In this document: piece after piece, positions 2,571 to 63,267 of the stretch
Numbering within the stretch: position 1 is the stretch's first letter
Layout: each line of letters opens with the position of its first letter
DNA from: Euglena gracilis
Taxonomy: Eukaryota
Assembly: GCA_039621445.1 (NCBI GenBank)
Contig: CP154954.1
Location: 12,208,716 to 12,272,715, forward strand
Reading direction: 5' to 3'
Length of the DNA stretch: 64,000 nt
The notes under the pieces: generated by a model
The model's database searches: none
The model's input: only the letters and a program-made list of their open reading frames with translations
Told to the model about the DNA's origin: nothing
Made by a program: the position numbers and the translations under genes

Positions 2571-2656
2571 ACCTGATAAGGGAAGGGGTTATGTAGGATC
2601 TTCCCCTCCCCCCTCAGACGTCCTTATACGTTCCTTTCAAAAGCACCCAAGAAATA

Positions 2657-9999: not shown

Positions 10000-10113
10000 T
10001 TAGAACCAGGAGCCCGCCCGCACCGCCGGCCGCGACGCCGGGCCCCACGGGCCGCCGGCGGCGGGGCCCCATTTCGCGGGTGGCGGCTCGTACCACAGCG
10101 GATCGCCCTCCGG
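10000..10113 (-). CDS. Probable terminal exon [36 protein letters not shown]
   Basis: GC-rich frame ending in TAA at 10000-10002. Confidence 0.6.
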   Translation of the reverse strand, partial: PEGDPLWYEPPPAKWGPAAGGPWGPASRPAVRAGSWF

Positions 10114-10214
10114 GCACTGTGGCGTGTTTGGGATATGCAGATGGATAAGCAGCACCCTCCGAAGGGCCTGAGGTTTTTTTTGCCAGAACGCACGCATCCG
10201 TATACACACACACA

Positions 10215-10250
<36 letters not shown>

Positions 10251-13200
10251 CAAACGCACCCACACACACACACACACGCACGCACATACACCCACACCCA
10301 CACAGGCTCACGCACCCACACACACATACACGCGCACACCAACATGCACAAACAGGTGCATGTGCACACGGACACAGAAAGGCCGGCAGCAAATCAGAAT
10401 GCTTTAAGCTTTCTGGGTGAAAGCGCTTTGCAATCCTATTTGCCAGAGTGCCAAACTGCACCAAACCCGCCTGCCGGCCCAGAAACCCAGAGACGGAAAC
10501 AGCAGCCGGTGCGCGGTGTGGGCTCGTGAAGCGGCCTGCGGGATGAGGGTTGGGGGCGTCCCACCAGCCGGCACTGTTGTGCCGCTGCGGTCGCCGGATG
10601 GCCAACAGGAAGGGGGGGGGGGTTGGTCGACAGGGAAAAATGTGGAAGCCAACCCGACCATCTCCAAACCCGGCCGAGGGTGGGCTGGAGGGGGGAAGCA
10701 GGGTTAGAGTACCTCCCCCCCCCCCCGGGAAACTGTCACCTGACAGGTTGGCCGGTACCGGGGACCCTGACAACTTCCTACACTGACAGGTTGGCCGGTA
10801 CCGAGGACCCTGACAGTTTCCCGGGCGGGACCCTGACAGGTTCTCGGGCATGACGGTATCCCGGGGGGGGGGGTGTAGGTGGGGATCTGGACCCGCCCCC
10901 CCCCCTGCTTGGACCCCCTCCCCTCCCCTGTACAAAACCAACGCTCACTTCATACCCTGCCCAACCCACCTACCCACTCTCGAAAACCCCCCAGGGGTTT
11001 CGTCAACCAGGGCCCCAGGCGTCTTTTTAAACGATCGAAATGATCACTCGCAAAGAAATATCAAAAAACGAAAAGACATCTCATCCAAAAGAAGCTATTT
11101 CTGGGATGGGACGCTCCCGAGCGCATTCTATCTCAGAAATTATGGTGTGCGGGGGTTTCCATAAACTAAATAAGGGTCGCTGGGGGAAAGCTTTACAGGA
11201 CGCCAGGTACATGCTTCACGACCCTTTCACCATCAAATTATCCCCCCCTTTGCATGTGGCACGGAATAAGGGCTGTGCATAAAAAAAAATTTCTGACTTT
11301 CACCAACCCTCAGAGGGGGGGTCTCTTCCACTGTTCAAAAAAAAAAAAAACCCTTGCTTAAAGGGAGGAAAACGTAGCTGCTGGCTGACGCCTTCCTGTG
11401 GGCGTTGCCCACAAACTACCAAAAAAAACAATCTCAGCAAACTCCAAGTCTCAGGACATAATACAAACGCGCCAACAGACAACAATGGCCACCCGGCGGT
11501 CGCAAGTCGTATGCGGGCATGCGGGTCACCGGGTACGCCCCAGGCATGGAGACGCGGCCGACTGGGCTGTGGCTGCGCTGTCCTGGTTGGGGGCTAGGGG
11601 AAGGGCCGGAGAGCCACTGGGGGGGGGGGGGTATCCAGACAAGCTCTTTCCTTGTGTTTGCTGCTTGTGCTTCTTCTTCGACAAAATTAAACACAAGACT
11701 GGATGAAGACCAGTGCCAAAAGCAAATGAATTTCCAGGCAGACATCCGAAAACAACGGTGGGGGTGCCGCCAGGTTTTCGAAGAAGAGGAGGGGGGAGAG
11801 GAAAACGCCGGGCGCGTACCAGCCAGCCCTTGCCGCGGCTACGGTGGCGCGGGGTGACCCCATGCCACTGCTGTGCCGGAGATGGACGAACCTCGGGCGT
11901 GAAATGGCACCTCCGGCTGGAAAAAAAAAAAAAAAAACTGTTAAAACAATTGATGCGGAAATCCATTTTTTCACCGAAATGATACTGGGCAGACGGCCAA
12001 ATTTGACCAATTTTTGACCCATCTTTTGCACAGCCAAAAGAAAAAAAAGGCATTCTGTTCAGCCACTCTTCAGGCAGCTGGACAGCTAAATTCACTCCGG
12101 TGGAGGGCCCCGGGCACAGATTTTTTTTGGGGGGGCACTCTTTCCTGGACCAAAACCCACCTACCCACCCACCCACTTTTTCTCTCTGAAAACCCACCCA
12201 TCCACCCACTCCCCTCCCCTGGACGGTCAACCCACCCACCCACTCACCAGCCACCCAAAAAATCACTCGAAATCGGCTGAAAAGCGTTGAAAAGAGTTTT
12301 CCACCCAGCCTTCGGCTGGGCCAAAGACAGACCCCTGGAGCACCCCCCATGGGGACTGGCGCCGCAACCCACCCACTCACTCTTGAAAACCCACCCCCCG
12401 GGGGTGAGGTTACACAGCTGTTGAGTGAATGGTCCAGGGTTGGAAAGAAGGGCCACCCAGGTGGGTGGAGTCCCTCCGGCTTACGAGATGCCCTGACACT
12501 CACCCTGGTGACCCTGGAGGGTTTCAATGACGGAGTCAAGGATAATTACACCTGGGCCAAATCCAAGGGGGGGGATGTCAATGCATACAGTGTATACAGT
12601 GTGGCTAAAAATTATGGAAGACAAAAACTACGGCAAAAAAAATACGAGAAAGAAATTATGGCAAAAATTGGGTATTTTGCCAAAATTTCTGTCTTCCGTA
12701 ATTTTCAGCTGAACTGTACAATGGACTTCAGGAAGCAGTTGGATGGCTGGCACTCCGGCGGGGGTGGGCATGCATGGAGGGGCTGGGGGGGCGGCCGGCG
12801 TTGGGGGCGGGGCTGCTGCTGCGCAGGGGGAAGAAGTCCCCGGAGGGGGCACCAGCAGGGGCGGCCGTGCGTGGAGGGCCGATGGGCAAGCCCGAGTACC
12901 TATTTATTTACCTGTGCAGTGTTACTCTGTCAGGAGACAGTTTCCCGGGGTATATGCCTTCCAGACACAGCACGCCATATCGCATCCTCCACGTTATCAT
13001 TACGTGGTGTTTTTCTTTCGAAACATTCCTTTCGTGTTAGTCCTCTGTGCCGTTGGCACCACGTCACCCACATATTTGTTAAATATTGCCCAAGGGGGGA
13101 GTTTTGGAAGAAGGAAAGGAAAAGATACCATTTCATCAACGTCCACTGCTCAACCTGGGTGGCTTGCACACATTCACTCACTGTTTATCTAAACAAACTT

Positions 13201-15696
13201 GGAAGGTGCTGATGACCTCTTCAGGAAGAAAATCATTTCAACAATATGTCAGAAAATGCGAACACCCCCAATACAACTCATACACAATACCCCCAAATTT
13301 AACCCCCCCCCTGGGTGGTTGTGTGTTGCAGGCACAATATGGGGGAAAAAATCCCCCCCCAAAAAACATACGTTTTACGACTTTTTAGGCATTGAATTCA
13401 GTACTTTTGGTCAAAAAAATGGTGACCAACTGAAAATTGCTCAAAAATGGTGAAATCTGAGCAATCCCCCAAAAAATACAAAAAAACCGGGGGTGCATTT
13501 TGCGGGGGTTTCTTTCGGAACAGGACAGGCAGCCTCTGGGCAGACACCCGCGACGTCTCGGGGTAGACCAGCCGGGGGGACACCGCCGCGGGGCTGAACA
13601 TCTCCGGCGACGGCAGGCGGGGGGACTGGCTCAGGGGGCTGATGCGCGGGGCCAGGGCTGGGGGCGTGGTGCCGTCCGGGCGGACGGGCGGGCTGGCGAT
13701 GGGGTCGGAGTGGACCTTGGTCACGGTGGGGACCGGCGCCACTGGCACAGGGCAGTGGCGGGAAGGAAGTGATGGGGCACCGAAGCGCGCTGGCGCATGG
13801 GGGGGGGGCAAGCAACCGATAAACATCAGGTGTATTACTGTGTGTGCGTGTGCCCTCAAGGAGATTGTACTTATATGATATAGCGTAAGAAGCATTCATG
13901 CTTATGTATACACATGTACACACACACACAAACATCCATCCATCCATCCATCCATCCATCCATCCATCCCTCCCTCCATCCATCCATCCATCCATCCATC
14001 CATCCATCCATCCATCCATCCATCCATCCATCCATCCATCCATCCATCTATACATACATCCATCCATCCATCCATCCATCCATCCATCCATCCATCCATC
14101 CATCCATCCATACATCCATCCATCCATCCATCCATCCATCCATACATACATACATACATACATACATACATACATACATACATACATACATACATACATA
14201 CATACATACATACATACATACATACATGCGTACGTACGTATGTACATACGTACATACATACATCCATGCATAATTGAATATAAAAAAAAACCATTTCGAA
14301 ATGGAGGAGAAAAACAAAGAACCTTGAAACAAAGGGGGAAAACAGCAACAAACACAATTTGTGTGTGTGCCCACGTTTGTGTGCCGCCCACCCACTGCTC
14401 TATATCGTGACTTGGCAATAAATAATAATAATAATAATAATAATAATAAACACGTGAAGTTCGCAGAGAAATACACCCAATCCTGCAGCAAACGTTTTCG
14501 AACTGCCCAATTACGATGCATACATACATACATACATACATACACACATACATGCATGCATGCATGCATGCATGCATGCATGCATGCATGCATGCATGCA
14601 TACATACATACATACATACATACATACATACATACATACATACATACATACATACATACATACATACATACATACGTACGTACGTGCGTACGTACGTACG
14701 TACGTACGTACGAACGTACATACATGCATAATTGAATAAAAAAAATCAAAATCATTTCGAAATGGAGGAGAAAAACAAAGAACCTCGAAACAAAGGGGGG
14801 GAAAAACAGCAATAAACACAATTTGTGTGTGCCCACGTTTGTGTGCCGCCCACCCACTGCTCTACATCATGACTTGGCAATAATAATAATAATAATAATA
14901 ATAATAAACACGTGAACTTCGCAGAGAAATACACCCAATCCTGCAGCAAACGTTTTCAAACTGCCCAGTTACGATCGTCGTGATGTGGCAGTGCCACCAC
15001 CTCGTGGTCGGCACCTCAAATCCAGCAGGAGCCTCGATGTACGGCTTGTCGCGTGCCCACCTCCTCGCCGAGGGGTCCTGCGGCCGACCTCGACGCTCCT
15101 GAGCATTAGGCAGCGGCGGGGCGTCTGCACCAGCCATCTGCCCCAGCCTATCGTACTGCCATCCACCTCAGCCCCCACTCCACTCGGGTCAGGGTCCCTG
15201 GGACTCGCTAGTCCCGGGGACCCTGACAATCTCCTCAGTGGGCCGTGACTTTAACAGTGGCCCTTCCTTTCCACTATCTAATGTGACAACCCCCCCTCAG
15301 GGTCCACTAGAAATTACATTTGGCCCATTTTAGACTGGCTGTAGTCCAGCCCACCCCTCGATGGGGAGGTGCAACTCCTAAAGCACATGCTACTGCACAT
15401 CCTAAAAGACCACACACACAAAGCACTACAAATACCAAAGCACACGCTTGCTACACAAGGATATACCCAATGAGATGTCCTGAGTAAACAAGGCCAGTGA
15501 ACAGTGACACGGGGGGAGGAGGAAAAATGTTTCGATCATATTTGAAACGTCATTACACACACACACATATGTATATGTATATATGTTTGCATATGTATAT
15601 ATACATATATACATATATGTATATGTATACATATGTATACATACATACATATACATATATATTATATATATTATATATTATAATATAATATATATA

Positions 15697-15727
<31 letters not shown>

Positions 15728-21700: not shown

Positions 21701-22959
21701 CTGGGTGGGTCAACTCCTCCTCCTGTGCAAAGGAAAATCTGGAACTAAGCTGGAAAATATATCGAAATAATTGGTTGTTAGCAACGCACCCCGGAGCAGG
21801 GTTCGATATAAGGACAGGTGGGGGGGGGGGGGGCGGGCCCCCCCCCCCCCGGCGGGCCAGGGGGGGGGGGGGTGGGGGGGACACACCCCCACCTAAACAG
21901 GTGCGCGGTCAGGGTGGCCGAAAATTTTTGACCCCCCAAAACGACCAAAAGTGCCATTTTGGGCACTTTTTGGGCAAAAATGTGCCAAAAATGCAAAAAA
22001 TTTTCGGCGCGAAGCGCCGGAGGAAAAAATTGGCCCTTTTTGGGGGGGGTCCCGGGAACCCCCCCGAGGGTCGGTCCGGACCCCCTGGCAGGTGGGGGGG
22101 GGGGTGGTCCGGACCCCCCCCCCTGCGGGCCAGGAGGGGGGGGGGTGGGGGGGACACCCCCCCACCTAAACCATGTACGCCCTCCTTATATCAAACCCTG
22201 CCCCGGAGTATTTTCTGAAAAATTGGCAAAAAAACAGATGAACATGACCTTGCGCCAGGGAAGAAAATTCTTTGTTTTGGGGGTGTCGAAGAAAAATAAG
22301 AGCAGAAATTGCACATGCCCAACGACCATGTCTTTCAACCAAACTGTTCATTGGACAGTAAAATAGCACCGAATCCCTTCACAAAACACTCCAAAATTAA
22401 ATTGCCGATTATTTCGGTGCTTGAAAATTTATTACACTTGGCTTGAAAAGTATTGACTTGAACATAATTCTCCCAATTTCTGTGCTTCCGTCAATACAGA
22501 CAGCATGTCTGGCACACGCGCCAGGTTGCACAGACACTCACCACCACTCCTCCCCCACGCAGAACACACTTGCTCGCACACTCACAACTGAATCAGTCAC
22601 AGCCCCTGGCCAACGCCCGGCCTTGCTCCAGCTGCAGGCGGCTCCACATGGAGTGTGCATCCGGGGGCGTCCCTGCCGGGCCGGCCACCAGCTGCCGGAA
22701 CCGGTTGAGGCCATCGCCCCCAGGTTGGTGGGCCCGACAGGGGACAACGCGCGATGCCAACAACCACAGAGAAGCAATGAACTTATGGCCACATAAAAAC
22801 GAAGGCCATTTCATTGGTGTTGAAATTCTTTCATGTTTGACCGGGGGGGTCCCGGAGTATCCACTCACTTTTCCCCCAAAATGGCCAGAAAATTGCGAAA
22901 ATGCTAAAAATAGCACCTTTTCAAAAAATTAGGCACCTTTGGTGCGAAAAGTATATCCC

Positions 22960-22997
<38 letters not shown>

Positions 22998-28628: not shown

Positions 28629-28660
<32 letters not shown>

Positions 28661-30121: not shown

Positions 30122-30196
<75 letters not shown>

Positions 30197-30198
30197 TT

Positions 30199-30253
<55 letters not shown>

Positions 30254-41593: not shown

Positions 41594-41624
<31 letters not shown>

Positions 41625-47600: not shown

Positions 47601-50600
47601 CTGTGGAACGATGCCACGTCAAAGAAAGTGGAGCGGAGTGTAAACTGCCCCTACAATTTAAGTGCTCAGCGTCTGAAGGGTACCACACCCTGAGCAGGGG
47701 TTTTCTTAAGGACCCCCCCCCCCTGGGGGTGGTCCAGCCTCCGGCTGGCAAAAAGGCTGCTGGCTGGAAACGAGCTGCTGGATGGACCCCCCAGGGAGAT
47801 AGGGGGGGGGGGTCCGGGGCTGGAGGGGGCTGCTGGGCTTGGTCGATGAAAAAAAAATTTCTAACACATTTTTGCCTTCTCGACATTTTGATGGATGGAG
47901 CTAGATCAAGGCTGGGGGGCTGTGATAGAGGACGCTGTGATGAGAAAAAAAATGCAGGGATAGGTGAGCTGGGCAGCCCAGTTGGTTGGCCAGCCTGCGG
48001 CCGGCCGGCTGACCCAGCCTTCGGCTGGCTGGCCCGGCCTCCGGCCGGGCTGGACCCAACTTTATTTCACTTGACCCTCCTGAATTTGGGCTGCTGGCTG
48101 GATTTGAGCTGCTGGCTGGCTGGACCCCCCCGGTGGGTAGGGTCCCCTCCGGCTGACCCTGAAACCCCTGACCCTGAGCCTCCAAAAATGAAATCCAAAA
48201 AAGCGAACACACCTGAGTGTCCGAAACCACTCTCCAAAATTGTGACCATCCGTGTGTCTTAAATGGAAAGGGGAAGTTGGGAAGCCTTGAGGGTTCGGAC
48301 CCCCCCTCGAAACTGAGGGGGCCCGAAAATTTTTTCGGTTTTATGCAAGGGCAGGAAATCGACCAAAATTGTTCAAAAATCATTGATTTTTATTTGAATA
48401 TTAACCCAAAAATGCAGATTTTTTGAAATTCTTTGAACATTTTATCTGGAAAACACCAAAACATCAAAAGATGGGCAATATGCTCAAAGTTAAAGGAAAG
48501 GGGGCATTTTTGGTTCATTTTCTGGCGCGCAGCGCCGGAGGAAAAAATTCTCTATTTTTGGAACCTGCTGAGGAGGGGATGGGGGTCCGGACCCCCCTTA
48601 CAACATCTAGGGGAGGAGGGTCCAGGGCAGAACGGGAAGGCCTGGTGGGGGGGTCGACCCACCCCCACCCACCACAGCATTTCCACCAACTTTGAACTTT
48701 GGGAAAACGGGGATTTTGGCTGGGGGAAAATTTTTGAAATTATTTTGAAAAATGAATCTAAAATACATGATTTTTTGATGCAAAACCACATTTTTTCACA
48801 AAAAAAAACTCCGGATTTTCAGGTTTAAAAATTGGTAGTTTTTAGGAGGGGGGCAAAAAAAATGCAGGTCAAAAAAATGGACCAAATTTTGGCACAGTAA
48901 TTCACTGACATTTTTTCTCTTGGAAATTTTTTGCATTTCCAATAGCATTTTTTGCTTCAAAACCTCTCAAATCAAAATTTTGAGAAAATGTTAAAATTTT
49001 GGAAGGTGTGAAAAAAAAATGGGGTTTTTAGGGTTTTTGGGGGGACCTCCCATATGGGTCCCAAAATGGGTCCAAAATACACTCAGTGCCGAAGGCACCA
49101 AAAAAAATATTGGGGTCCAAAAATTGGTGCTCCCGGAAATACGGGAAGTGGTGGGGGGGTTCGACCCCCCCCACCACCCACCACGCTGGCTGTTTGGCCG
49201 ATTCCTGTTCTGCCCTGGGGTGGTCTGGACCCCCCTGCCATCTATCGCTGGGGTCGGCGGGCACACCCGCTGCTTCGCGAGGTAGCGGCGGTACTTCGCG
49301 GGGGGCATCCACTCGTGCGCCACGAACACGTCACCCGCCTGGAGCTGGGCCATGGCGGCCCGCGCCGTGGTGGAGGAGTGCGAGAACTGCCGCCGGCAGG
49401 GGCCGCCGCGTGAACCCCAAGAATCCCAAGAATCCCAAGAACCCAAGAATCCCAAGAATCCCAAGAATCCCAAGAATTCCAAGAATCCCAAGAATCCCAA
49501 GAATCCCAAGAATCCCAAGAATCAATTCATTCAAGAATCAAGAATTGCTGGGGTGGAAGCGACCTCACTCCCCAGCAGGGCATGAAGTGAGAGGGGGGGA
49601 GGGGGGAGGGGGCTGGTCCAGGACGCCCCTCCCCCCTTGCGTCAAAAAAAAACCGACGCAAAGCACTGGAAAAAAATTTGATGGGCTTCAAACAGTGCGC
49701 AAAATTATCCCCCAAACCGGCTATCACACAATGCACAGAAGCAGCAAGGGGGTATGGGGAGGACAAAGATAGAGCAAAAAAGGCCGGTTGGGGGGGGACT
49801 TTGCTTATGGTGTATTGGATTACAGCCGTCGCAAGGCGTCCTCCATGTAGATGGCGCATTTGAAGGGTGGAGGAAAGGTAGTACACTGGATGGAAAGGGG
49901 GGAAATGCTGAATAAACAGCTTGATCTCCCATTAGATCATTTTGTCTCCCGTCATTTTTTCCCACTCAGAACTCTGCCTACAAATTTGCAGTACCTCCTC
50001 CCTGGACTGCAGCTTATCCAAAATCGGCCAATCGCTGTCCAATTGGAAAATGGGTCAAACTACAGTGGCGTGATCAGAAATGCAATCACAGGCACGGTCG
50101 CCACACACTACACATTTGAGTGTGGTTTGACCATCACACTCACACGGAAACAAAACCTCAGGTGCACATTGTGTCTGACGTGCTGCACCCGAGGCTTTGT
50201 CCTTGATCCTATTAGCGGAGGGGACACGGCTTTAGAAAATCTCTGAAGCTCAAAGTTCAAATATAATATTTTTCCCATGATTTTTCTTCCTGTAATTCTT
50301 CCCATAATGATTGTCTCTGACGTTTATCTGCACTGTATCAGTGTAGGGGTGACAAATTAGCCACCACCATGCCCACTCAATTTTCCCGGAAAATGGCCAA
50401 AAAGTTGGGAAAATGCTAAAATAGCCCCTTTTTCAAAAATTCTCGGCGCTTTCCGAAAAGTATACCCCCCCCCCCTGTGCGGACCCCCCAGGGGGGAGGC
50501 TCGGCCATGCACCCACCCTACCCCCCTCTCCCCCCAGGGGTCCAAGACTAAAAGAAAAACCCCTGTCCTCCACAGACACCACCACGGTGATGTGAGGTGG

Positions 50601-53600
50601 TCTGCGGTGCCACAGCCGGGGTCGGAGAGTGCCGCCCATGCGTGTTGAGGGCTCTGCTTTCGCCCATAGCATTTCTGGTTCAGACCAGAGATGTTTTTTT
50701 TTGAAACCTCTGCTTGCCATCCCTTGCCGAGGGAGGGGGTGGCACCTGGACCCCGGGGTATGAATGCAAATGTTATTTGTCAGAAATTTCCATGTTTTTA
50801 TAAAAATTAATATCTGACATTATATATTATTAATATTATATATAATATAAAAATTTCCATCCATATGTTTCTGGAGACAGAATTTTGGCCACAAAACGAG
50901 TTGCGGGTGCAATTTTTGAAACGTGCAATTTGCTATTTCCCGTCCATTCCTTCCATTGTTTAATCCAATCATGATTTGAGGTTAGGAAAGTGTTTTTCCA
51001 GTCGTTGCGGCGTTTTTTTTTTCGCCGACGTTGCCGATACAATCACCCTGCCCATAGCTTTTTGGCCCAAGAAGCCAAAAAAGAAAAACGTTTGGTTCAC
51101 TTTGGGTAAATGTTGTGCCCCTTTCGCTCAGCCAAATATCGGTTGCTGCGTTGGGCGAACTGTCCACATACCGGTGGGAAACTGCCTTTTCCGACTCTCC
51201 TCATCCCAAAAAGTCCCCACAATCCCCCCTGTAACCCACAGAATATCTAACCCCGAGGCTTTGGGAGGCCTAAACAGCTGAGGTCTGTCATCATCCAACA
51301 GAGTGCGCCAACAAATGAATTGGCCCACAGAAAGTGCTGGGGGAAGAGGGGTCAGCCCCTGGCTGTTCGTCTTCATCGTTGCGCTGCCGCTTCCCGTTGT
51401 TACCGCCTTCGCCCTTCGTCTGCTTTGTGAGTTGGATGTGGCCTCAGGCTCTGCCAGCAGTTCAGCAAGCGAACGAAATCCTGCTTGCCGTGTTTATTAT
51501 GGTTTGCAAGAGTCAACGTCAACTCCCCGGCCAAAAACGACAAATCAACTGCACAGGCCCCCCAGCATCAAAACAGTGGCATGGCCAAAATGACCAAATG
51601 CACCCATTCTACGCTATCGGTGAAGAGATTTAGGGCGTTTTGGGGCATTGGACAGAAGGTTATCAAATGAAAATTGCTGCAACAGAGCCAAAGAGAGAGA
51701 GGATAAAAAATTGAGAGACGAGAAAAAAATCACTTCCAGGGAGCGAAATGACCTGGTGTGGCTGGAGGGATGGGATACAGCATCCGAGGACGAGCCTGAG
51801 CAGCCCTTCCAGCCGTTGAGGAGGCTGCGGAATGGGGACAGAGAGACGCGGGCAGGCAGGCGCTATGGCATGGCACTGTGCTCCTTTTGCTTTGGTGGCG
51901 GTTGGCTGGTTGGTGGAAACCAGCTATCTGCGCTGCAGGAAGGAATGGCGGGTTGTTTGCTGCGCTTGAGTGCAGCGCTGGTAAAAACAAAATTTTCCTT
52001 TGGGGGTTTCGGGATGGGGTTACAAAAAAGAGTAGAGTCAGGCTGCTTTTTCTTCTGTTCACCAACCCTGGGGGGAGGGAGGAACTTTGTGCTATTTGGT
52101 GCCTGCCCATAGCAGGCACCCCCCCCAGTGCCTGCTAAACCCCCCCAAATAATACCCCCCCCCCAATAATACCCCCCAAATAGAGGGGGGGGGGTATTCA
52201 ACCAACCCAATTTTCCCTTGAAAATGGCCATTTTTGGACTCCCGACGCCGAAAGCACACTTCGCTGTTGCGGGGGGGGGGGCTAGCCCAGCATCGAAAAA
52301 AGGAGCAAAAGCACAAAAAGACGCACATTTTTCGGGGAAAAAAATGTGCAAAAATAGTCAAATTTGAGAGAAAATGTGCAAAAATCACGAAAATGCAAAA
52401 TTTGCCCAAACACCTGCAAAAAAAGGCACCAAATTTACAATAATTGTGTGGAATTATGCGGTTTTTGAAAAAAAATTCAAAAAATTGCAAAAATTTACAA
52501 AAAATGGTTAAAAAATGCGGAAAAAAAAAGTGAAAACAACAAAAAAAAAAAAAAAGCACCAAAAAGCAAAAAATGTGCTGAAAAAAAGCGAAAAAAAACA
52601 CGCAAAAATGCGAAACGCATTCCCCCCCTTGCACCGCCCAGGCCTGAAACCTGACCCCAGGCCTGCCTGAGGTGTGTTCTCTAAAAAGACTAAAAAAAAG
52701 AAGATGCTTAACAATTAAAAAAAAAACAGGGATAAGAAGAAGATAAGAAGTAGGTGGGCAAAGGGGCCAGCAATTTTGGGGCAGCGAAGGAGAGGAGCGA
52801 CACAGTGGCAGCGCAAGGAGGGGTGACAATTGCTGGGGCGACATAGCAATCATCTCGAGTATTTTCTTGTTTCATTTTTTTTGGATCATTACATTCTTGG
52901 GGTTTTTTTGGTAATGGGTCTGGTCAAAGGTTAACCAACGTTGAAAACAACAATATCTCAAAACTCCTTTTTTCGCACTGCTGTTCCTCATGAACAGCAT
53001 GAGGAGGTGACAAAACGGCTTGCACAAGACAGCAAGAGGGAGGTACCCATTGCCCGAGGGGGGGGGGGGCAACTATTGTGCGGACAATAGGCTAAGGAAG
53101 TTTTTGGATCTTCTTCTGAAATTGCAATACTGGTTGCTGGTGTTTTCATCAACACAAACTGACCTGGGATCGCCAGCCAGCTCCGACAGATACTTCCCCT
53201 CCAGTTTATGGATCTGCTCCTCCAGCAGCAAGAGTTGTGCCCGATGTCGTTGGCCTTCTGGGTCACCAGCAAGCAGCTGATATGGTCAAGTGATTCCTCA
53301 TGCACTTCTATGGATGCACTCCTGACCATTGAACCCCCCACACACAGACCCCCCCAATAAAAATGCTACAACAATAAAGCCCAGGGGGGCCACCGGCAAC
53401 GCTTGGCCGCGATAAGCCATTTCTGCCCGCCTGAAAATATCCCCAAATTTGTCTGATTTCTCAAATTCAGTACCAAAAAAATCTCGTACAATTTGTGAGT
53501 AAACCAGGTTTTGAATAGTGCTGAGCTCTTAAGATGCGCGCAAACGCGCATTTTTGATGCCCTATATGAACTGGCTCCCTGGATAGACCCTCCAGGAAAG

Positions 53601-56600: not shown

Positions 56601-59600
56601 CTGCAGGGCACTGCACTGCACTGCACCATTCTCATCCGCAAGCTCCCGCGAGGCCCCAGATGTGGTCCATCCGGTCCGCGAAGGTGAACGCCGCCTGCTG
56701 GGCGGTGCTGGAGCCGCCCCACGCACTCTCCGCCGCCGCCCGGCAGGGCCTCCGCCATTGAGGCGAGCCCCGAGAAACGGGGCAGCGTTCCGCTCCGGCA
56801 TCTCCGTTTCTGAGTTGCTGAAAACGGAGGTGTTTGTTTTGAACTCCTCCGGCTTCGATCCGTTATCCCCCCGACCTTTGACACGCCACAGTACGGGGAA
56901 AGTGCAGTTGACACGGGGGGCTGTCATGGACCAGCCCTATCAAGGACAGGTCTCCCCCAGGAAGTTGTCACTTGAGAGTCAGCCAGTACAAGCAGGTGAT
57001 ATTATCAGGTGATGACTTCCAGGGGCCTGTGGTGGACTTTCCACCGTGAGAAGGCAGGTGGTTTGGGCTTGAGGTGGCAACTTCCAGGGTAGTTGGCAAA
57101 CTCGTAGGGTGAATGTCTTAAAGAAACCTGCGAAAAAAAATCACTCTGACATCATTCCGGCAATCATTCAGGCATTCTTGGATCATTGTCCACACAAACT
57201 TATCCAGTCACATTTGGAACATGGAGATTTAATTTTTGACCCCATTCGATGCCCGGATGGCCCTTGTCCCATCATTAAAACATAGAATTAAAAAAAAACC
57301 TTAAAACAACGGAAAAACCTGCCTCAAAAACCTTCATTTTTGGGGAAAAAATTGCCTTGAAAATAATATCTCTTACAACTTCTACCACTTTGCGCAAAAA
57401 AATGAGTATGAATGCATTGGACCAGTCCCCCAACCTCATCAGGGTGTCAGTTTCGGAAGTTGCCAGCTGTCAGGTGACAGTTTCCTGGGGGGGGGGGGAG
57501 TACCCTGCCGGAGGTGGGGTTTTCTATATTTGGCGCTTCGCCAAACACAGGGGAAGAACACAAGTTTTTGGACCCCAAATTGACCCCAAAAATTGGTTCC
57601 CTTCGAGTCCCTCCCCCAGGGGGGTGGGTGGGTGGGTGGGTGGGTGGGTCCAACGAGCTTTATGGGCTTAAAACTCACAATCCTGCATAATCCCACAAAA
57701 TCCCGCATAAATTTCATGGTCAAAGGCGCTTCATCAGCACCACCAATGTGCTTTTCTGTTGTAATTTCAGATTTCTTTCCACGGTCTCCAATTTTTCATT
57801 TTTCTGTTGGATTATCTTCTTTGTTTGTTTGGCTCACTGTAGTGCAGAGGACGGGGTTATTATTTGGTATTTGTCAAATGCATACAATTTACCTCAAAAA
57901 TGCTTGCATTTGACCCCAAAGAGATATCTACACGTTTCGAAAATGCACCCTAATGTTTGCATTTTCCGATATTTTGTTTTTGCTTGGATCTGCCAATTTA
58001 CACTGTTGTCCTTTTTTATCAGAAGGGATGGCATCAAGGTTATCAGGGAGAGGCCCAACCAGATTCACCAATTGCCCATGCTCCCATCCTAACTCGGGTC
58101 GGGAAAATTCTGGGACGGAAGCAGTTGTGTAAAAGTGTAATAAAAAAAACAATACATGCGCACAAAAATATCCAAAATTGAAAAGAAAAAAAAACCTTTT
58201 GATACCCTGCCTTTTTTCAACCTCTTTTTGGAAATTGACCTTTTTTTGTAAATTCAGCCTCTATTTTCCCTGTGATCTGCCAGCAGACACAATGGGAAAC
58301 AACTTTCTGCTTCCAAAGAGACGCCCTGGGAACCTGACCGTCCACGGCCTCGACCTCCGGCGGCGCATCGACCCCCTCCGCCTCCAAGCTCTGCATGCGG
58401 CTGAACTCCCGCTGGAGCTGCCTGAGCCAGGGGAGGACCCAGACAGGGCAATGCCAACGCCGCGCGCGGCACACCCTGCACGACACCGGGCACATCGTGT
58501 GGCGCACGGCACGGTTTCGCTGAAATTACCCACCCCCCCCCTTGTCGTACGACCGGGGGGTGGTCGTACAACCTGCGACCGGGGGGGGGGGGGGTGGTCG
58601 TAAATGAGGGGTGGTCGTACGACAAGGGGGGGGGGGTACCTAAAAAAAGCTGCAATTCTCAGTTTTGGTCTGAATGAAAAAAAATATTGCTTGCATTGCT
58701 TCTGAATTTTTCGAAAACTTTGGACACGAAAGACACAACGTGAAAAAAAAAACAGCGGAAGCATTTTGAACACAAAACCATTTCGTCCAGCCGCAATGTG
58801 TTGAACCAATATTGCTCATTTATGTCACATCCGGCGCCACTGTTACCCACCCCCCGAACAATGGCCCCATGGGTAATTATTCAAACACGCAATTAAAAAC
58901 TCGGGCAGGGGCTGTTATTTGGGGGGGGGGCTGTTTTTTTGGGGGGGGAGGGCTGTTATTCAGAGTTTTGTGTCAGAAAATTGGCTCCCAACAGAACTCA
59001 AAACCCCATTTCCCCCAAAAAAATACCTTTTAGGGCCCTCTTGTCAAGATGAATGTCGCGGTTGTGCAAAAAAAAAAAAATATTTCAGAAAAAAATTGCT
59101 TTTCCCCTGTGACAAGCTCTGGAATATATTTTTAGTGACTCCCCAAGGGGTGGGCATTTTTCCCCTGGCCCAAACCCCCACCCACTATTTTTGAAAACCC
59201 ACCCATCCACGACCCCCCCCCCGCCGTTGAGTGATCAACAAATAATTTGGGAATCACTTAAGAAGTGCACCTGCAGCCCAACGTTGATTGGTTTTCCCCT
59301 AAACTGAACAGAACCTTCCATTTTGTGTTGTATGTGCGTACACACAGGAAATAAGCCATCACATGCGACATTTGCACGCACAAGCATCAATAAAAAAAAC
59401 TGTAAAAAAATCAGTCAACAACAACAGCTCAAAGAAACTTGGAGGGATCCCGGGGAAACCCGGGAACACTTCGGCATGGCGCAACCCCTCAGGGGGATCC
59501 GTCCGCCCCTGCCCGAGCCTCCGGCAGCTCCCAGTGCTCCGCCAGCAGGCCCACAGCGGCCCGCACGAGGTGGGTGCACGCCTGCATGTGGGCGGCGTGG

Positions 59601-60070
59601 GTGCGGCGGCCGGTGGAGGACAGCCCCCGCGTGGGGCCAGGGCTGTGCGGGAAGGCCTGGCGCGGGGGGGGGGGGGGCGGTCCGACCCCCCACCACCGAT
59701 AGGGCTGCATGGATTCCCGGACAGCCCTGCGTGTGGCTAAGGGCCGAGCCCAGGCCGGTGCTTCAGACCACCATCAAGGGTGAGGGCTTCGGGCTGGCAT
59801 TCTCAGTACCAGGGGCCCTCCCGACCCCCTGTCCATGGCACAGAAATGCGCCACGAACGGGCCAATAGCACATGAGTGTGCCACCGGTACAAATGCACAA
59901 TAAAATAATAAGAATAATAATAATAATCATATAATAATAATATCATAATAATAATAAGAATAATATAATAATAATAATAATAATCATAATAATAATAATA
60001 TAATAATAATAATAATAATAAGAATAATAATAATAATAATATAATAATAATCATAATAATAATAATAATA

Positions 60071-60141
<71 letters not shown>

Positions 60142-60268
60142 TAATAATAATATCAACAACAACAACAACAAACACAACAACAACAACAACAACAAGAACA
60201 ACAACAACAACAACAACAACAATAATAACATATATATAGTTAATAATGGCACATATATATGTTTAATA

Positions 60269-60329
<61 letters not shown>

Positions 60330-63138
60330 ATCAACGTTGTTTGAATGCGTCGGTGGAGAATCGTTGGGGAGCGGGGGGCAGGACGTTTTTCTGTGGAACA
60401 CCCGTTTTTGAAAAGGAAGGAAGCCTGCCGGGAGTTCCGCTGGGCCGCTTTTGGACCGGTGGGAGCGTCCTTCAGCAAGGACCTGGGTTGGATGGCCGCC
60501 ACGAGGTCTCCCTTCAGCTGCAGGAGGGACTCGCTGAGGGCGGTGGCGGAGCTGCAGGGGGGCGCCAGGCCGCTGAGGACTCTCGCGTAACAAGTTGGAT
60601 TTTCACGTCATCTCTAAGGCCACTTGTTCTCACAGAAGCCCAAACCAAAGCATGATTTTTCGCACTTCCGCCAACCTGTCCTGCTCTGCGCCAAGTCCGT
60701 TCGAGCCCCCCAGCCCCCCCCCCTGCCCCCTTGTCAGGGCCCCTGGCTGGAAGTGGCCCGACTGAGGGTCAACCAATGTACCCAAAAAATCGACGTGTCA
60801 AAAATGAACAAAAGAACTTCGACGTGTGCAAAATATGGATTTTACGACCCCAAATTTGCCCAGGCCATCCTTATAGACCTGTTTTCGCTCATTTTTTTCA
60901 TTTTTTTTTGCACACCCAGAAGGGAAAAAAAAAACTGCTGCAGCCCAGCCAACCTTCGGGTGACTGAAAAACAAATTTAAACTTGTCGATGGGGGGAGCG
61001 GGTCCGAAGCTAGAAAAGAGCTGCTGGCTGTGAATGGGGTCCACTTTGATTTATGCGACACCATGCCCCCCACCCACCACAATGCTTTGCCCCCCAATCT
61101 GAAATTTACTATAGAGGAGTTTCCAAAACCCGTCAGACAGAAAAAAAACCCAAATCCAGTCAGCTAACTCCCCCCCCCTTGTACTTGACACGCCAAAATA
61201 CGGGGAAAGTGCGGTTGACAAGGGGGATGTCATGGATACGCCGTGTCATGTGCACTGTACCCCGTGTGTCATAGACCAGCCGTGCAAAGACAAAGTGGGG
61301 GAAGGTACCCCATGGATACACGAAAGGGGGGAATGGGCAGAAGCACTTGTGTTCCCTGTGCCAATACTCCCGTTACACCGCTGCTGTAGCCGTGCCGGTC
61401 GCAGCCGCAGCCGTGCCAAAAAAACAGTAGCACGGTAGTAGTACTACCGTGCTACTCATGATGCACGGTAGGCATCATGAGCATCTACCGTGCTCATGAT
61501 GCTGCCGTATCATGAGCCCGGCAGTGATACTACCGTGCTCACTCGTACGGTAGTGAGCACGGTGGTATCGTGCTCACTACCGGAGCACGATAGCGAGCCC
61601 AAGCCCGTGCAGCCGGCCTGGGCGGGTTGTACATGCGGGCCTGGAGGCGGGCGAACACGTCGAAGAACGACTGGGGGGACAGGTCCACGGAGACCGGCGG
61701 GACCTTCACCGGCTTGTCGGCCTTGAGCCGCTGGGGGCAGGGGGCTTTCACTGGGAGCTCGGTTGCCATTGAAACGAGTAATGTGTCGGACAACGAGGAG
61801 CTGGTCACCTTCCCTTTGACCGAGGCAGGGTCACATGGCAGGTACAGAAGCGCATGCTCCGCACCCGGGCTTATTGATCCCTCCAGACAAGTCAGCGAGA
61901 GTGCAGAAGGACAGCTTCGCAATCGGGTTGGGTCAGGGTGTAAATAAAAAAAGGTCCGCTTTCATTACACACTGGATCCCTGAGATCAAGATGGGGAAGT
62001 TTCTCAAAAAAAAAAAGGAAAGAAACACCTGGCCGGTGCTCATGGGTCAACAGGACCCACCAGACGACGATGTGGAGGTGGGCCTGGAACGTCTCGAGGG
62101 GGACGGCCTTCACGAGAGGAGGACAAATGACGGTGGCCGCTGGACAGTGCCCAGGAAGGAGGGTGGAACCGGAGCAGCGCACCAGCGTTGGGGTTTTTTT
62201 TTTAAGACCAGGGGGGGTCCCGGAAGACCCACTCACTTTTCTCTGAAAATGGCCAAAAAAGCGAAAATGCCAAAAATAGCACTTTTTTAACAATTTTCGG
62301 CGCCGAAAAGTGTATCTCCGGGGGGGGGGGGAGGGGTCGGCCGGACCCACCCACCCTGCCCCCCCCGGGGGCCAAGGCTAAAAAAAACCCTGGCCAGCGT
62401 ATTTTAAAGTTCAATCAGTCAACGGCTTCCAGGATTCCTGCGAAGCCTCTCCCAATGGCTGCTGCCTGAATTTGTGTGATGCTGACAATGGACACTGACC
62501 CCGAGGGGTTCAATGATACTGCACAAAACAATCAACACAAAACTACACAAAAAGTTCAAAGCTGCACGAAAATTGCATTGCAAATTTCATCACTTTCAGG
62601 GCCCTTTGAGACTATACACAATTTCTGGAAAAAAATAGCTCCTTCTGATTTTTTGACGGATTTTCCGTATGAAAACACTAAACTGGAAGGAAAAAAAAAC
62701 AAACTGCAAGAGCAATTTGAATCTCATTTCTTAAGAAAAATGCAGATAAAAAAAATATCTCCGAGAACCATCCCAAAGGCATGAACGTTCTCACGAGCAC
62801 AAGTTAATTCAGAGTTTGAGAACTCATTTATTCATTGAAATTCAGAAGTCAGTGCAAACTGCCCAGAAGCCACAAGGGTGGCATTCAGTGATGCGCTCTG
62901 GAGGCGGCCCAGCGGGTGACCCAAAATTTGTCACTAGCCACCACAAGCAGTTGTTGGCAGACACCAGCAGTACTACTGGTTTGGACTCTATACCGGTTTG
63001 GACTTTACAGGGACGTTCAGGGAAACAGGACAGTGCCCAGGGAGGCAGTCGAGAGGGCGAGGGCTGCGGACTGGGCTGGAAGGGTTCGGCACCACGCGGC
63101 TTTGCATGCGTCGGAGACGATGCGCATGCTGCACTCCT
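10000..63138 (-). CDS. Multi-exon gene: OTU-domain deubiquitinase with downstream PH-like segment and Pro-rich tail (5' end unresolved; may be two genes split at ~30711)
   Basis: About 40 GC-rich exons, many joining in phase under GT-AG or +4/-8 pairing rules; OTU Cys, Trp and His boxes occur in order. Confidence 0.8.
10477..10600 (-). CDS. Exon [41 protein letters not shown]
   Basis: CTGttggc| and |cggCAG. Confidence 0.65.
10712..10875. mobile_element. Short MITE (GGAAACTGTCACCTGACA family; relatives ~23700, 26425-26535, 56955-57090, 57430-57500)
   Basis: Inverted ends ccccgggaaactgtca/tgacggtatcccgggg; internal duplication. Confidence 0.7.
11490..11610 (-). CDS. Exon ...[27 protein letters not shown]; approximate
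   Basis: GC-rich open frame. Confidence 0.55.
12752..12850 (-). CDS. Exon [33 protein letters not shown]
   Basis: CTGctggt| phase 0 match. Confidence 0.75.
13542..13742 (-). CDS. Exon [19 protein letters not shown]...[13 protein letters not shown]
   Basis: CTGtgcca| and |gccCAG; high GC3. Confidence 0.8.
13933..14268. repeat. (CATC)n/(CATA)n microsatellite
   Basis: Direct. Confidence 0.95.
14265..14975. repeat. Tandem duplication of a ~250-bp unit (14265-14517, 14723-14975)
   Basis: Two near-identical copies separated by tetranucleotide repeats. Confidence 0.9.
15000..15135 (-). CDS. Candidate exon [38 protein letters not shown]; approximate
   Basis: GC-rich open frame. Confidence 0.4.
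17615..17744 (-). CDS. Pro-rich exon [41 protein letters not shown]; 3' end approximate
   Basis: CTGccact| start in phase. Confidence 0.7.
18261..18462 (-). CDS. Pro-rich exon [13 protein letters not shown]...PPNPSPTP (needs one internal frameshift, probably a homopolymer error)
   Basis: CTGccccc| and |gagCAG. Confidence 0.65.
19452..19890. mobile_element. MITE-like element with CGTGGGAGGTGG inverted termini
   Basis: Doubled motif at 19453-19481 inverted at 19862-19889. Confidence 0.65.
20054..20198 (-). CDS. Pro-rich exon [48 protein letters not shown]
   Basis: CCGgctgt| and |ctcCAG; phases match. Confidence 0.75.
21260..21475 (-). CDS. Pro-rich exon [20 protein letters not shown]...WPPPPAL
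   Basis: GC-rich open frame; |gccCGG pairs with CCG at -8. Confidence 0.75.
21797..22200. mobile_element. hAT-type MITE
   Basis: TIR CAGGGTTCGATATAAGGA/TCCTTATATCAAACCCTG; perfect 8-bp TSD CCCCGGAG. Confidence 0.92.
22629..22715 (-). CDS. Exon (frame ambiguous; likely ...[27 protein letters not shown])
   Basis: CTGggggc| and |gagCAA. Confidence 0.6.
22822..23026. mobile_element. Degenerate copy of the same hAT-type MITE family
   Basis: Shared core cccactcacttttc...aaaatggcc...gctaaaaatagc and end gactaaaaaaaactcctg. Confidence 0.7.
23211..23329 (-). CDS. Exon [39 protein letters not shown]
   Basis: CTGatgtc| and |cccCAG; high GC3. Confidence 0.8.
24505..24534 (-). CDS. Candidate small exon [10 protein letters not shown]
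   Basis: Fits the PH-like pattern between flanking exons; boundaries uncertain. Confidence 0.5.
24755..25169. mobile_element. hAT-type MITE (family shared with 47695-48170)
   Basis: CAGGGGTTTC...AAAACCCTG; TSD ATTCTGAG/AGTCTGAG; GGCTGG subterminal repeats. Confidence 0.85.
25416..25856. mobile_element. CAATTG-rich MITE, copy 1
   Basis: About 440 bp, TIR-like C(n)..GGCAATTG/CAATTGCCCG(n); close copies at 28983 and 31413. Confidence 0.85.
26087..26257 (-). CDS. Exon ...[39 protein letters not shown] (start of PH-like segment)
   Basis: CTGtaccc| start; high GC3. Confidence 0.8.
27418..27535 (-). CDS. Exon [39 protein letters not shown]
   Basis: CTGcccgt| and |gagCAG; phases match. Confidence 0.8.
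28060..28141 (-). CDS. Exon [27 protein letters not shown]
   Basis: CTGgctag| and |atcCAG. Confidence 0.7.
28200..28486. mobile_element. Fold-back MITE with GGCAGCCTCCAACT termini in TA-rich DNA
   Basis: Long inverted arms; internal TTAGGG-like motifs. Confidence 0.85.
28687..28979. mobile_element. Near-perfect palindromic MITE with GGCAGGTGAGAAC termini
   Basis: Whole element folds back; nested sub-terminal palindromes. Confidence 0.88.
28983..29456. mobile_element. CAATTG-rich MITE, copy 2
   Basis: Same element, flanked by TA on both sides. Confidence 0.85.
29520..30395. repeat. Compound tetranucleotide microsatellite
   Basis: TGCA, TGTA, CGTA, TTTA, TTTG, TTGG, TTCA and TTCC blocks. 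Confidence 0.95.
30711..30768 (-). CDS. Exon [15 protein letters not shown](AGR*); terminal or internal
   Basis: Upstream intron stem cagggtg/caccctg; phase 2 match. Confidence 0.7.
30824..31107. mobile_element. hAT-type MITE (family with 22822-23026, ~50370-50565, 62189-62392)
   Basis: CAGGGTTTTTT...AAAAAAACCCACTA; perfect TSD GAGGGGAA. Confidence 0.85.
31413..31887. mobile_element. CAATTG-rich MITE, copy 3
   Basis: Same element, flanked by TA on both sides. Confidence 0.85.
32013..32141 (-). CDS. Exon [43 protein letters not shown]
   Basis: CTGgccac| and |gccCAG. Confidence 0.8.
33473..33573 (-). CDS. Exon [34 protein letters not shown]
   Basis: In phase across the TIR/TSD intron 32142-33472. 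Confidence 0.7.
34432..34500 (-). CDS. Exon [23 protein letters not shown]
   Basis: cagcc/ggctg stem in upstream intron; phase 0. Confidence 0.8.
34884..35015 (-). CDS. Exon [44 protein letters not shown]
   Basis: CTGgcgat| and |acaCAG. Confidence 0.7.
35869..35967 (-). CDS. Exon [33 protein letters not shown]
   Basis: ctcgcag| acceptor, very high GC3. Confidence 0.85.
37380..37460 (-). CDS. OTU His-box exon [27 protein letters not shown]
   Basis: HYDSV motif (His 37449-37451); TTGccact| start, GT donor. Confidence 0.92.
38343..38427 (-). CDS. OTU exon [28 protein letters not shown]
   Basis: Upstream intron stem cagcccca/tggggctg; |gggCAA. Confidence 0.85.
39209..39250 (-). CDS. OTU exon [14 protein letters not shown]
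   Basis: CTGccgga| and |gccCAG; in phase on both sides. Confidence 0.8.
39647..39695 (-). CDS. OTU exon [17 protein letters not shown]
   Basis: WGG..E motif; CCGccccc| and |gccCAG. Confidence 0.9.
40077..40170 (-). CDS. OTU exon [31 protein letters not shown]
   Basis: F..YL pattern typical of OTU; |accCGG intron start. Confidence 0.85.
40661..40697 (-). CDS. OTU exon [12 protein letters not shown]
   Basis: In-phase link between the Cys box and the next helix. Confidence 0.7.
41155..41242 (-). CDS. OTU Cys-box exon [30 protein letters not shown]
   Basis: Canonical OTU GDGNCL..ALS.QL motif; Cys codon 41190-41192. Confidence 0.93.
43371..43508 (-). CDS. Exon ...[29 protein letters not shown]
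   Basis: ccccacag| acceptor; |ggcCCG pairs with CGG at -8 of the intron end. Confidence 0.75.
45566..45674 (-). CDS. Exon [36 protein letters not shown]; 3' end approximate
   Basis: gtttgtag| acceptor in phase with the previous GT donor. Confidence 0.7.
47695..48170. mobile_element. hAT-type MITE
   Basis: CAGGGGTTT...GAAACCCCTG; perfect TSD ACCCTGAG. Confidence 0.9.
48623..49217. mobile_element. hAT-type MITE
   Basis: TIR CAGGGCAGAAC/GTTCTGCCCTG; TSD GGAGGGTC/GGGTGGTC. Confidence 0.75.
49267..49391 (-). CDS. Exon [42 protein letters not shown]
   Basis: CTGccggc| start, |gtgtgc donor, very high GC3. Confidence 0.8.
49416..49523. repeat. (CCCAAGAAT)n minisatellite, about 12 units
   Basis: Direct. 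Confidence 0.95.
49828..49841 (-). CDS. Candidate 14-nt micro-exon (E)DALR
   Basis: Restores phase to give VSVEDALRRQFSH; both flanking introns show 8-bp terminal repeats. Confidence 0.5.
50569..50608 (-). CDS. Exon [14 protein letters not shown]
   Basis: Upstream intron ends pair (agccagggg/ccccggct); followed by |ggaCAG. Confidence 0.65.
51365..51439 (-). CDS. Exon [25 protein letters not shown]
   Basis: CTGaggcc| and |agcCAG boundaries. Confidence 0.65.
51758..51824 (-). CDS. Exon [22 protein letters not shown]
   Basis: ttccgcag| acceptor; in phase with next exon. Confidence 0.55.
53165..53278 (-). CDS. Exon [35 protein letters not shown]; approximate
   Basis: Coiled-coil-like open frame. 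Confidence 0.6.
55100..55301 (-). CDS. Candidate exon [21 protein letters not shown]...[13 protein letters not shown]; approximate
   Basis: Open frame after CTGaaatg|. Confidence 0.4.
56263..56338 (-). CDS. Exon [25 protein letters not shown]; approximate
   Basis: GC3-rich frame after ccgcag. Confidence 0.6.
56650..56739 (-). CDS. Exon [30 protein letters not shown]; approximate
   Basis: GC3-rich frame preceded by ccCTG. Confidence 0.65.
58340..58422 (-). CDS. Exon [28 protein letters not shown]
   Basis: CTGgctca| and |ggtCAG boundaries. Confidence 0.8.
58529..58637. mobile_element. Small palindromic MITE (CCCCTTGTC...GACAAGGGG; relatives 44885-44996, 47206-47310)
   Basis: Inverted termini flanked by TA. 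Confidence 0.65.
59515..59632 (-). CDS. Exon [39 protein letters not shown]
   Basis: CTGgcccc| and |gggCAG boundaries; phases match both neighbours. Confidence 0.8.
59900..60330. repeat. (AAT)n/(AAC)n/(TA)n microsatellite
   Basis: Direct. Confidence 0.95.
60431..60585 (-). CDS. Exon [50 protein letters not shown]; start approximate
   Basis: GC3-rich; followed by cggCAG; in phase with next exon. Confidence 0.7.
61170..61280. repeat. Dispersed repeat (copies 35577-35740, 56876-56935)
   Basis: Shared ttgacacgcca...aagtgcggttgaca..gggg..tgtcatgga. Confidence 0.75.
61624..61870 (-). CDS. Exon ...[56 protein letters not shown]; start approximate
   Basis: Long GC3-rich frame followed by intron start gccCAGg. 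Confidence 0.7.
62064..62140 (-). CDS. Exon [26 protein letters not shown]; 3' end uncertain
   Basis: gtccag| acceptor, GC3-rich. Confidence 0.55.
62189..62392. mobile_element. hAT-type MITE
   Basis: Ends ...AAAAAAACCCTG; TSD ACCAGCGT/GCCAGCGT. Confidence 0.85.
63020..63138 (-). CDS. Candidate exon ([34 protein letters not shown]); boundaries approximate
   Basis: GC3-rich open frame. Confidence 0.4.
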
Positions 63139-63197
63139 CCGGAGTGGACAAAGGGGGAAATTAAAATTTAAGGATTTGACCGAAGTGCCCACGTAAG

Positions 63198-63198
63198 C

Positions 63199-63265
<67 letters not shown>
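63198..63265. repeat. (CAA)n microsatellite
   Basis: Direct. Confidence 0.95.

Positions 63266-63267
<2 letters not shown>

Follow-up and report, generated by a model that had tools for sequence, protein, structure and literature searches.

The origin and the peculiar geometry of the nonconventional introns of euglenids have been open questions since the 1990s. In the available text of the main descriptions (Tessier, 1995; Milanowski, 2014, 2016; Nomura, 2025), these introns carry CAG at positions +4 to +6 and CTG at positions -8 to -6 with adjoining pairing, have direct repeats at their junctions, and are proposed to be of MITE-like origin with “TSD-like” repeats. The elements described below share these features and differ in that they are intron-like by sequence alone. 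The splicing code given by Nomura et al. (2025; PMC12501133) reads 5'-N3-CDG...CH'G-N5-6|R. According to the experiments in that text, the 5' spacer is strictly 3 nt, the 3' spacer is preferably 5 nt with 6 nt tolerated, and pairing after the CAG is required for nonconventional splicing. The same text counts direct repeats at 84.4% of 649,158 E. agilis junctions and describes them as abundant at the conventional introns of this species too. For E. gracilis, the consensus reported in PMC11170887 is CCAGG at +3 to +7 and CCTG at -9 to -6, and among the nonconventional introns counted there, 11,653 have ambiguous junctions vs. 4,498 with fixed ones. This CAGG/CCTG consensus is the same as the MITE ends found here.

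A MITE-like origin of nonconventional introns was proposed in 2014, in a paper according to which euglenids had no known transposon at that time (Milanowski, 2014; PMC3935182), and a 2024 review depicts TIRs and “repetitions of TSD” at nonconventional junctions (PMC11282704). The remark of the initial annotation that a transposon origin had been suggested in general terms is borne out by these texts, which propose that the introns stem from MITEs and describe TSD-like repeats. Eight-nucleotide direct repeats are described at a gapC intron that is strain-specific and was gained recently, and the authors took them as a mark of break repair (Milanowski et al., 2016; PMC4770533). In the running text of openly available articles, we found neither a repeat length equal to 3 + 5, nor a superfamily, nor concrete MITE families. 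The general idea is already published. What appears to be new is the exact 8 = 3 + 5 geometry, together with its connection to particular MITE families.

A parallel is offered by the introner elements of algae such as Micromonas. As with the elements described here, a short TIR element with its TSD makes a ready intron upon insertion, and the review of these elements describes one splice site as element-borne and the other as co-opted from the TSD (PMC11282704). In contrast, introners have a 3-nt TSD and are removed by the spliceosome at GT/GC-AG sites, whereas the elements described here have an 8-nt TSD and are predicted to be removed by a hairpin-dependent, nonconventional route with both cuts inside TSD copies.

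The DNA analyzed is a stretch of 64 kb (the window), numbered from its first letter. The pattern proposed for it in the initial annotation, in which a nonconventional intron equals one CAG...CTG transposon plus one TSD copy, appears real and is partly confirmed: its MITE side is well supported in the window, and four putatively young intron-like elements lend support to its intron side.

MITEs flanked by 8-bp direct repeats

The window fits DNA of the euglenid nuclear type by several features, namely long microsatellites, repeats rich in G/C runs, a retroelement, and short segments of extreme GC3. Its G+C content varies between 42 and 58%, and a low-complexity mask covers about one fifth of it. 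Low-complexity and microsatellite tracts, with tetranucleotide arrays of the ATGC/ATAC type and A/T-rich triplet runs, are found at 13441-14745, 28400-30125, 59878-60341, and 63189-63290.

Short inverted-repeat elements whose ends are of the CAG(G)...(C)CTG type number at least seven. All six MITEs that had been listed beforehand are real, since the CAG-type ends and the flanking 8-bp direct repeat can be read directly in each. The TSD is perfect in three of the seven, matches at 7/8 positions in three, and at 6/8 in the element called M5. Where the TSD is perfect, its length is exactly 8 bp, since the adjoining outer base differs. The elements and two further copies of one family are the following:

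M1, 21797 to 22200: MITE of 404 bp, with end CAGGGTTCGATATAAGGA and its inverted copy (TIR 17/18) and TSD CCCCGGAG (8/8; 21789-21796 and 22201-22208)
M2, 24755 to 25169: MITE of 415 bp, M4 family, with ends CAGGGGTTTCTT... and ...AAAACCCTG and flanks ATTCTGAG and AGTCTGAG (7/8)
M3, 30824 to 31107: MITE of 284 bp, family F1, with left end CAGGGTTTTTTTT, right end (reverse complement) TAGTGGGTTTTTTTT, and TSD GAGGGGAA (8/8)
M4, 47695 to 48170: MITE of 476 bp, with ends CAGGGGTTTTCTT... and ...GAAACCCCTG and TSD ACCCTGAG (8/8)
M5, 48623 to 49217: element of 595 bp, with TIR CAGGGCAGAAC(G/A)GGAA and flanks GGAGGGTC and GGGTGGTC (6/8)
M6, 62189 to 62392: MITE of 204 bp, family F1, with left end TGGGG (not CAGGG), right end CCCTG, and flanks ACCAGCGT and GCCAGCGT (7/8)
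M7, 8533 to 8795: MITE of 263 bp, additional to the six listed beforehand, of the form CAAGGG...CCCTTG, with ends CAAGGGATTT... and ...AAATCCCTTG and flanks CGCATTAC and CACATTAC (7/8)
22839 to 23025: older copy of family F1, with right end ...AAAAAAAACTCCTG kept, left end degraded, and TSD not recognizable
50372 to 50565: 5'-truncated copy of family F1, with right end ...AAAAACCCCTG kept

The window thus holds two multi-copy families. Family F1 has four copies (M3, M6, and those at 22839-23025 and 50372-50565), which can be aligned over about 200 nt. M2 and M4 have both ends in common, the shared stretches being about 90 and about 70 nt long. The right end of M3 reads TAGTGGG in reverse complement. 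M1 has non-coding flanks. M5 adjoins the strongly coding-like segment 49253-49399 and starts about 30 nt downstream of it on the minus strand; its removal with 3 and 5 flanking nucleotides would lead to a stop codon three codons past the join. The TSDs of M1, M2, and M4 (21789-21796, 24747-24754, and 47687-47694) are alike at their ends (CCCCGGAG, ATTCTGAG, and ACCCTGAG), which hints at a target preference of the form ...C(T/G)GAG, and all five MITEs in a non-coding context (M1-M4 and M7) have A at position 7 of the TSD.

A search of metagenomes with a degenerate pattern of the F1 ends returned no stretch. Seventeen metagenome loci matching the M1 TIR were rejected as MITE copies; each is a single match without an inverted partner within 3 mismatches, and they are therefore chance matches.

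Two tests made no selection on the 8-nt register. The first used CAG...CTG pairs in which 7 or more of 9 additional bases are paired (151 pairs, 117 after a simple-sequence filter). Among these strong-stem pairs, six have flanks identical at 6 or more of 8 positions in the 8-nt register; in 16 shifted-register controls the number averaged 1.0 and never exceeded 3. The second counted CAGGG...CCCTG pairs whose flanks differ at no more than one position, which made up 4/685 at n = 8, compared with 1/602 at n = 7 and 1/716 at n = 9. When all TIR pairs were scanned with looser criteria, 7 were obtained at n = 8 vs. 1.9 expected, with modest excesses also at n = 6 and n = 9. When no stem was required, CAG...CTG pairs gave no register-specific excess, every register lying above the binomial expectation. 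Ten elements match at 6 to 8 of 8 positions in the 8-nt register, including three perfect MITEs and one perfect intron-like element (I13, below), and identity is 7/8 in five further elements. A register table of ten curated elements was not used as a test, because most of them had been picked at n = 8 and the table peaks at 8 by construction. An excess of 8-nt identity is limited to a few young elements; beyond them identity stays at background level.

Coding-like segments and intron-like elements

Exons were located by third-position G+C periodicity alone, with a strict list of periodic segments. A self-trained codon model was dropped after it had drifted to “GC-rich in every frame and strand,” and a GC3-minus-GC2 index together with a first list of GC3 segments was rejected as too unspecific in favor of the stricter list. 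Periodicity is strand-blind, because third positions are common to one antisense frame. The whole window has 46 periodic segments; the coding-like segments are sparse and short, with GC3 of 86-100%. At 41149-41259, 43373-43468, 49253-49399, and 62043-62114, for example, GC3 reaches 97-100% and positions 1 and 2 only 48-61%. Segments of near-100% GC3 are a very strong exon marker in this genome, and a strand-blind one. The coding strand is fixed at one place by a protein motif:

41150 to 41243, minus strand: exon with an OTU cysteine-protease motif (17 residues; Pfam OTU, E 0.014, profile positions 1-16)

On the minus strand, the segment 49253-49399 (GC3 98%) has an in-frame ATG within a 32-residue reading. 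At 31920-32150, the plus-strand reading, with a 27-residue stretch, is more protein-like than the minus-strand one. Genes on both strands therefore probably lie within the span from 10 to 62 kb that had been assigned to a single minus-strand gene; together with the sparseness of the coding-like segments, this speaks against such a gene. CAGG/CCTG occurs within 22 nt of only 8/21 right and 5/21 left ends of strong coding-like segments (13/42), where the background is about 0.21 and about 0.19, or about 20%.

Six intron ends had been cited by position. Four of them (32142, 39251, 49392, and 41243) have the partner and the flank identity described for them, but the other two do not. The end at 49842 lacks a CAG/CTG-type partner, its sole pair being GTA...TAC, at a distance of 154 nt and with a repeat matching at 7/8 positions, and 18463 has only G-rich, ambiguous matches. 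Candidates were submitted to a phase test, which asks whether the GC3 phase of the two coding-like flanks survives when the element and 8 flanking nucleotides are excised. The intron-like elements and weaker candidates are listed below:

I9 (end cited as 32142), 32147 to 33469: intron-like element of 1323 bp, with TIR CAGGCAAGGACA (12/12) and flanks GACGTGGC and AACGTGGC (7/8)
I10 (end cited as 39251), 39256 to 39643, minus strand: intron-like element of 388 bp, with TIR CAGGCAG(T/C)TTTG (11/12) and flanks ACCTCCGG and GGCTCCGG (6/8)
E8, 59638 to 59729: intron-like element of 92 bp, with TIR CAGGGCTGT(G/C)CGGGAA (13/14) and flanks CGTGGGGC and CGTGTGGC (7/8)
I13, 10595 to 11495: intron-like element of 901 bp, with CGG...CCG ends CGGATGGCCA and CGGGTGGCCA (pairing 9/12) and TSD GCGGTCGC (8/8)
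I14, 60566 to 61620, minus strand: candidate nonconventional intron, with ends CAGGCCGC and CAGGCCGG and flanks 4/8
I11 (end cited as 49392), 49397 to 50748: weak candidate, with ends CAGGGGCC and CAGGTGCC and flanks 6/8
I12 (end cited as 41243), 41244 to 41760, minus strand: weak candidate, with ends CAGGCCGG and CAGGCAGG and flanks 5/8

Every intron-like element has CDG/CH'G ends. The pairing that follows CAG and precedes CTG amounts to 12/12 in I9, 11/12 in I10, 13/14 in E8, and 9/12 in I13, and the downstream exon starts with a purine in I9, I10, and E8, not in I13 and I14. An open reading frame crosses the join in I9, I10, and E8. I9 adjoins the coding-like segment 31920-32150, and the phase is retained when 1331 nt are removed. 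I10 sits between segments of the OTU gene, and on the minus strand the removal of 396 nt joins a 10-residue stretch in frame to VIVFCDEFQ..., the frame remaining continuous. In OTU domains, a helix is expected after the WGG motif. Removal of I10 would leave the domain without this helix, which counts against I10 as an intron. Two protein searches with exon-bearing ORFs, the OTU exon against longer proteins and the WGG exon against proteins of near its length, returned no spliced protein fragments.

I13 came out of a search in which flank identity was unused. Neighboring periodic segments were examined for phase and for a 3-of-4 stem; among 202 phase-consistent candidate pairs, 16 were returned, and I13, which lies between two coding-like segments of matching phase, is one of these 16 and has a perfect 8-bp repeat. 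I14 is another of the 16. Flank identity averages 2.69/8 in phase-consistent pairs (n = 16) vs. 1.90/8 in inconsistent ones (n = 29), a gap due to the single 8/8 pair, and looser exon calls give 2.33 (n = 24) vs. 2.16 (n = 55). No graded “age series” of introns, as had been read from hand counts, is thus detectable in these pairs.

E8 brings the two classes of elements together. Removal of 100 nt retains the GC3 phase in both of its flanks, and 26 of its leftmost 31 nt agree with the left end of M5 (alignment score 37, compared with 17.5 ± 2.5 and a maximum of 28 in 300 shuffles). Judged by this match, E8 is in all likelihood a miniature relative of the larger M5, 10 kb away, and would link the MITE and the intron-like classes; both adjoin coding-like segments. 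For the other intron-like elements, the 64-kb window contains no relatives. Folded to minimum energy, E8 has local hairpins in place of a stem between its two ends, and at its join all three minus frames have a stop nearby, with one plus frame open.

The remaining candidates are uneven. For I14, the minus-strand frame is continuous across the join over 19 residues, which is convincing. The pairing of I11 is doubtful, because its far flank is AT-rich and devoid of coding periodicity. I12 lies upstream of the OTU exon, and a conventional AG is an alternative reading of its junction. Overall, I13, I9, I10, and E8 are probably young nonconventional introns.

Repeats are also nested within these regions. 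A dispersed family with the core ...CTTGACACGCCAAAGTACGGGGAAAGTGCGGTTGACAC...TGTCATGGAC... occurs at 61171-61261, 56878-56930, and 35577-35669, nested in candidate introns, and a further nested repeat at 10704-10829 is similar to 26411-26535.

Predicted removal with one copy of the target duplication

On the published 3-nt/5-nt spacing (PMC12501133), the arithmetic put forward in the initial annotation holds: taking away 3 nt, the element, and 5 nt restores the target exactly. Therefore, removal of a CAG...CTG element with an 8-bp TSD would take along one TSD copy, no more and no less. The course of events may be pictured as follows. Non-autonomous elements with CAG(G)...(C)CTG ends (variants CGG...CCG, CAA...TTG, and TAG) and inverted repeats of 11-18 bp would have colonized euglenid nuclear DNA, each insertion presumably duplicating exactly 8 bp of its target. 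The splicing system would then recognize the terminal hairpin anchored by CAG and CTG and cut 3 nt before CAG and 5 nt after CTG, a step shown in the literature. As sequence and arithmetic suggest, a transcribed element would in this way be lost with 3 + 5 = 8 flanking nucleotides, that is, with one TSD copy, and the pre-insertion message would be restored. Both cuts are expected to fall after the fifth base of a TSD copy, so that the message would keep bases 1-5 of one copy and bases 6-8 of the other. It would also be expected that junctions are “slidable” and that the two show an identical dinucleotide step. Some elements would be plain MITEs in non-coding DNA, and those at 10595-11495, 32147-33469, 39256-39643, and 59638-59729 would lie between coding-like segments whose phase is restored.

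We lean toward the reading that short non-autonomous, hAT-like DNA transposons colonized the window, that a transcribed insertion is removed with one TSD copy, and that some of the insertions are young nonconventional introns. A wider reading can be offered more tentatively. The 3-nt/5-nt geometry might exist to erase CAG-ended transposons with 8-bp TSDs in a scar-free manner; most Euglena introns (about 70% in E. agilis) might then be decayed insertions, and the two copies of the TSD might account for the 8-nt repeats of new introns, for the pyrimidine|purine step common to both junctions, and for the “slidable” nature of these. If the spacers are indeed the two halves of a TSD, intron gain would amount to transposition followed by automatic, scar-free repair at the RNA level. 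Hence, it would become explicable that about 70% of introns are of the nonconventional type. Besides the spliceosome, a second splicing system of a non-spliceosomal kind would then come under the introner principle.

Superfamily and alternative readings

The ends of hAT elements follow (C/T)A(A/G)NG, of the CAGGG or TAG type, and their target preference is nTnnnnAn. We take the CAG...CTG ends found here to be Ac-like hAT ends. The ends observed are CAGGG, CAGGC, CAAGG, and TAGTG; I13, with CGGAT, and M6, one end of which reads TGGGG, are exceptions. With hAT MITEs (Ac/Ds-like) the elements share the 8-bp TSD, short TIRs, and CAGGG or TAG ends; they differ in having no clear nTnnnnAn, with A at position 7 in 5/11 TSDs and T at position 2 in 1/11, and no transposase among the window ORFs. 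Indeed, Pfam comparison of 30 window ORFs found no hAT or Merlin domain, only the RVT_1 and RNase_H of a retroelement, and the proposed search for an autonomous hAT transposase thus gave nothing among these ORFs. The hAT assignment made in the initial annotation agrees with TSD length and terminal bases, but is backed neither by a transposase among these ORFs nor by an evident target motif. By the first two features the elements may be called hAT-like, with hAT itself unproven.

Merlin is the other candidate superfamily. For E. gracilis, Lopes et al. (2021; PMC8101967) describe two Merlin families in which the DDE motif is conserved, the TIRs are near-perfect, and the TSDs are 8 bp long; these are, like the elements studied here, DNA transposons with an 8-bp TSD in a Euglena genome. 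The same removal mechanism could therefore act on Merlin elements, or on those of another superfamily with 8-bp TSDs (P or Mutator-like), moved in the first case by the Merlin transposase known in Euglena gracilis. Besides the lack of a hAT domain in the 30 window ORFs, it speaks for Merlin that we found no literature linking hAT with Euglena in the running text of openly available articles. The TSDs in the window fall within the 8-9 bp of Merlin, but the TIRs do not begin with 5'-GG, as Merlin ends do in the text of PMC8101967. The ends are CAG...CTG because the inverted repeat includes the outer CA/TG and thus starts outside the G run, and by this description the elements are set apart from Merlin. 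We consider a Merlin-type origin unlikely.

The MITEs might also be real and unrelated to introns, with the junction repeats produced by double-strand-break repair or microhomology and 3 + 5 = 8 being a coincidence. This is how the text of Milanowski et al. (2016; PMC4770533) reads the 8-nt repeats of the gapC intron. The abundance of direct repeats at the conventional introns of E. agilis, as described in PMC12501133, and the lack of a general identity excess in the pairs of the window agree with such a view. It is less easily reconciled with the 8-nt repeats that intron-like elements and multi-copy MITEs of the same window both have, with the 11-14 bp TIRs of the same CAGG type in the intron-like elements, and with the end that E8 has in common with M5. 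We regard break repair as decidedly improbable.

That the intron-like pairs are ordinary transposon insertions in larger introns or non-coding DNA, the coding-like flanks being GC-rich chance periodicity, would suit the strand-blindness of the periodicity, the plainly non-coding far flank of I11, the stops in the minus frames and the one open plus frame at the E8 join, and the failure of I13 to follow the purine rule, but it is very improbable given that phase is restored in I9, I10, E8, and I13, with a chance of one in three each, and that I10 lies in a continuous minus-strand frame between OTU-gene segments.

The retroelement that supplied the only transposon domains among the 30 ORFs compared lies near the start of the window:

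1201 to 5709 (about 1.3-6 kb), plus strand: retroelement whose ORF at 2930-3817 contains Pfam RVT_1 (E 2.2e-6) and RNase_H (E 0.0028)

An inverted repeat, 1201-1303 vs. 5614-5709, encloses this element, and its two arms are identical at 89/95 aligned bases. This arrangement could represent a DIRS-like layout or two head-to-head copies.
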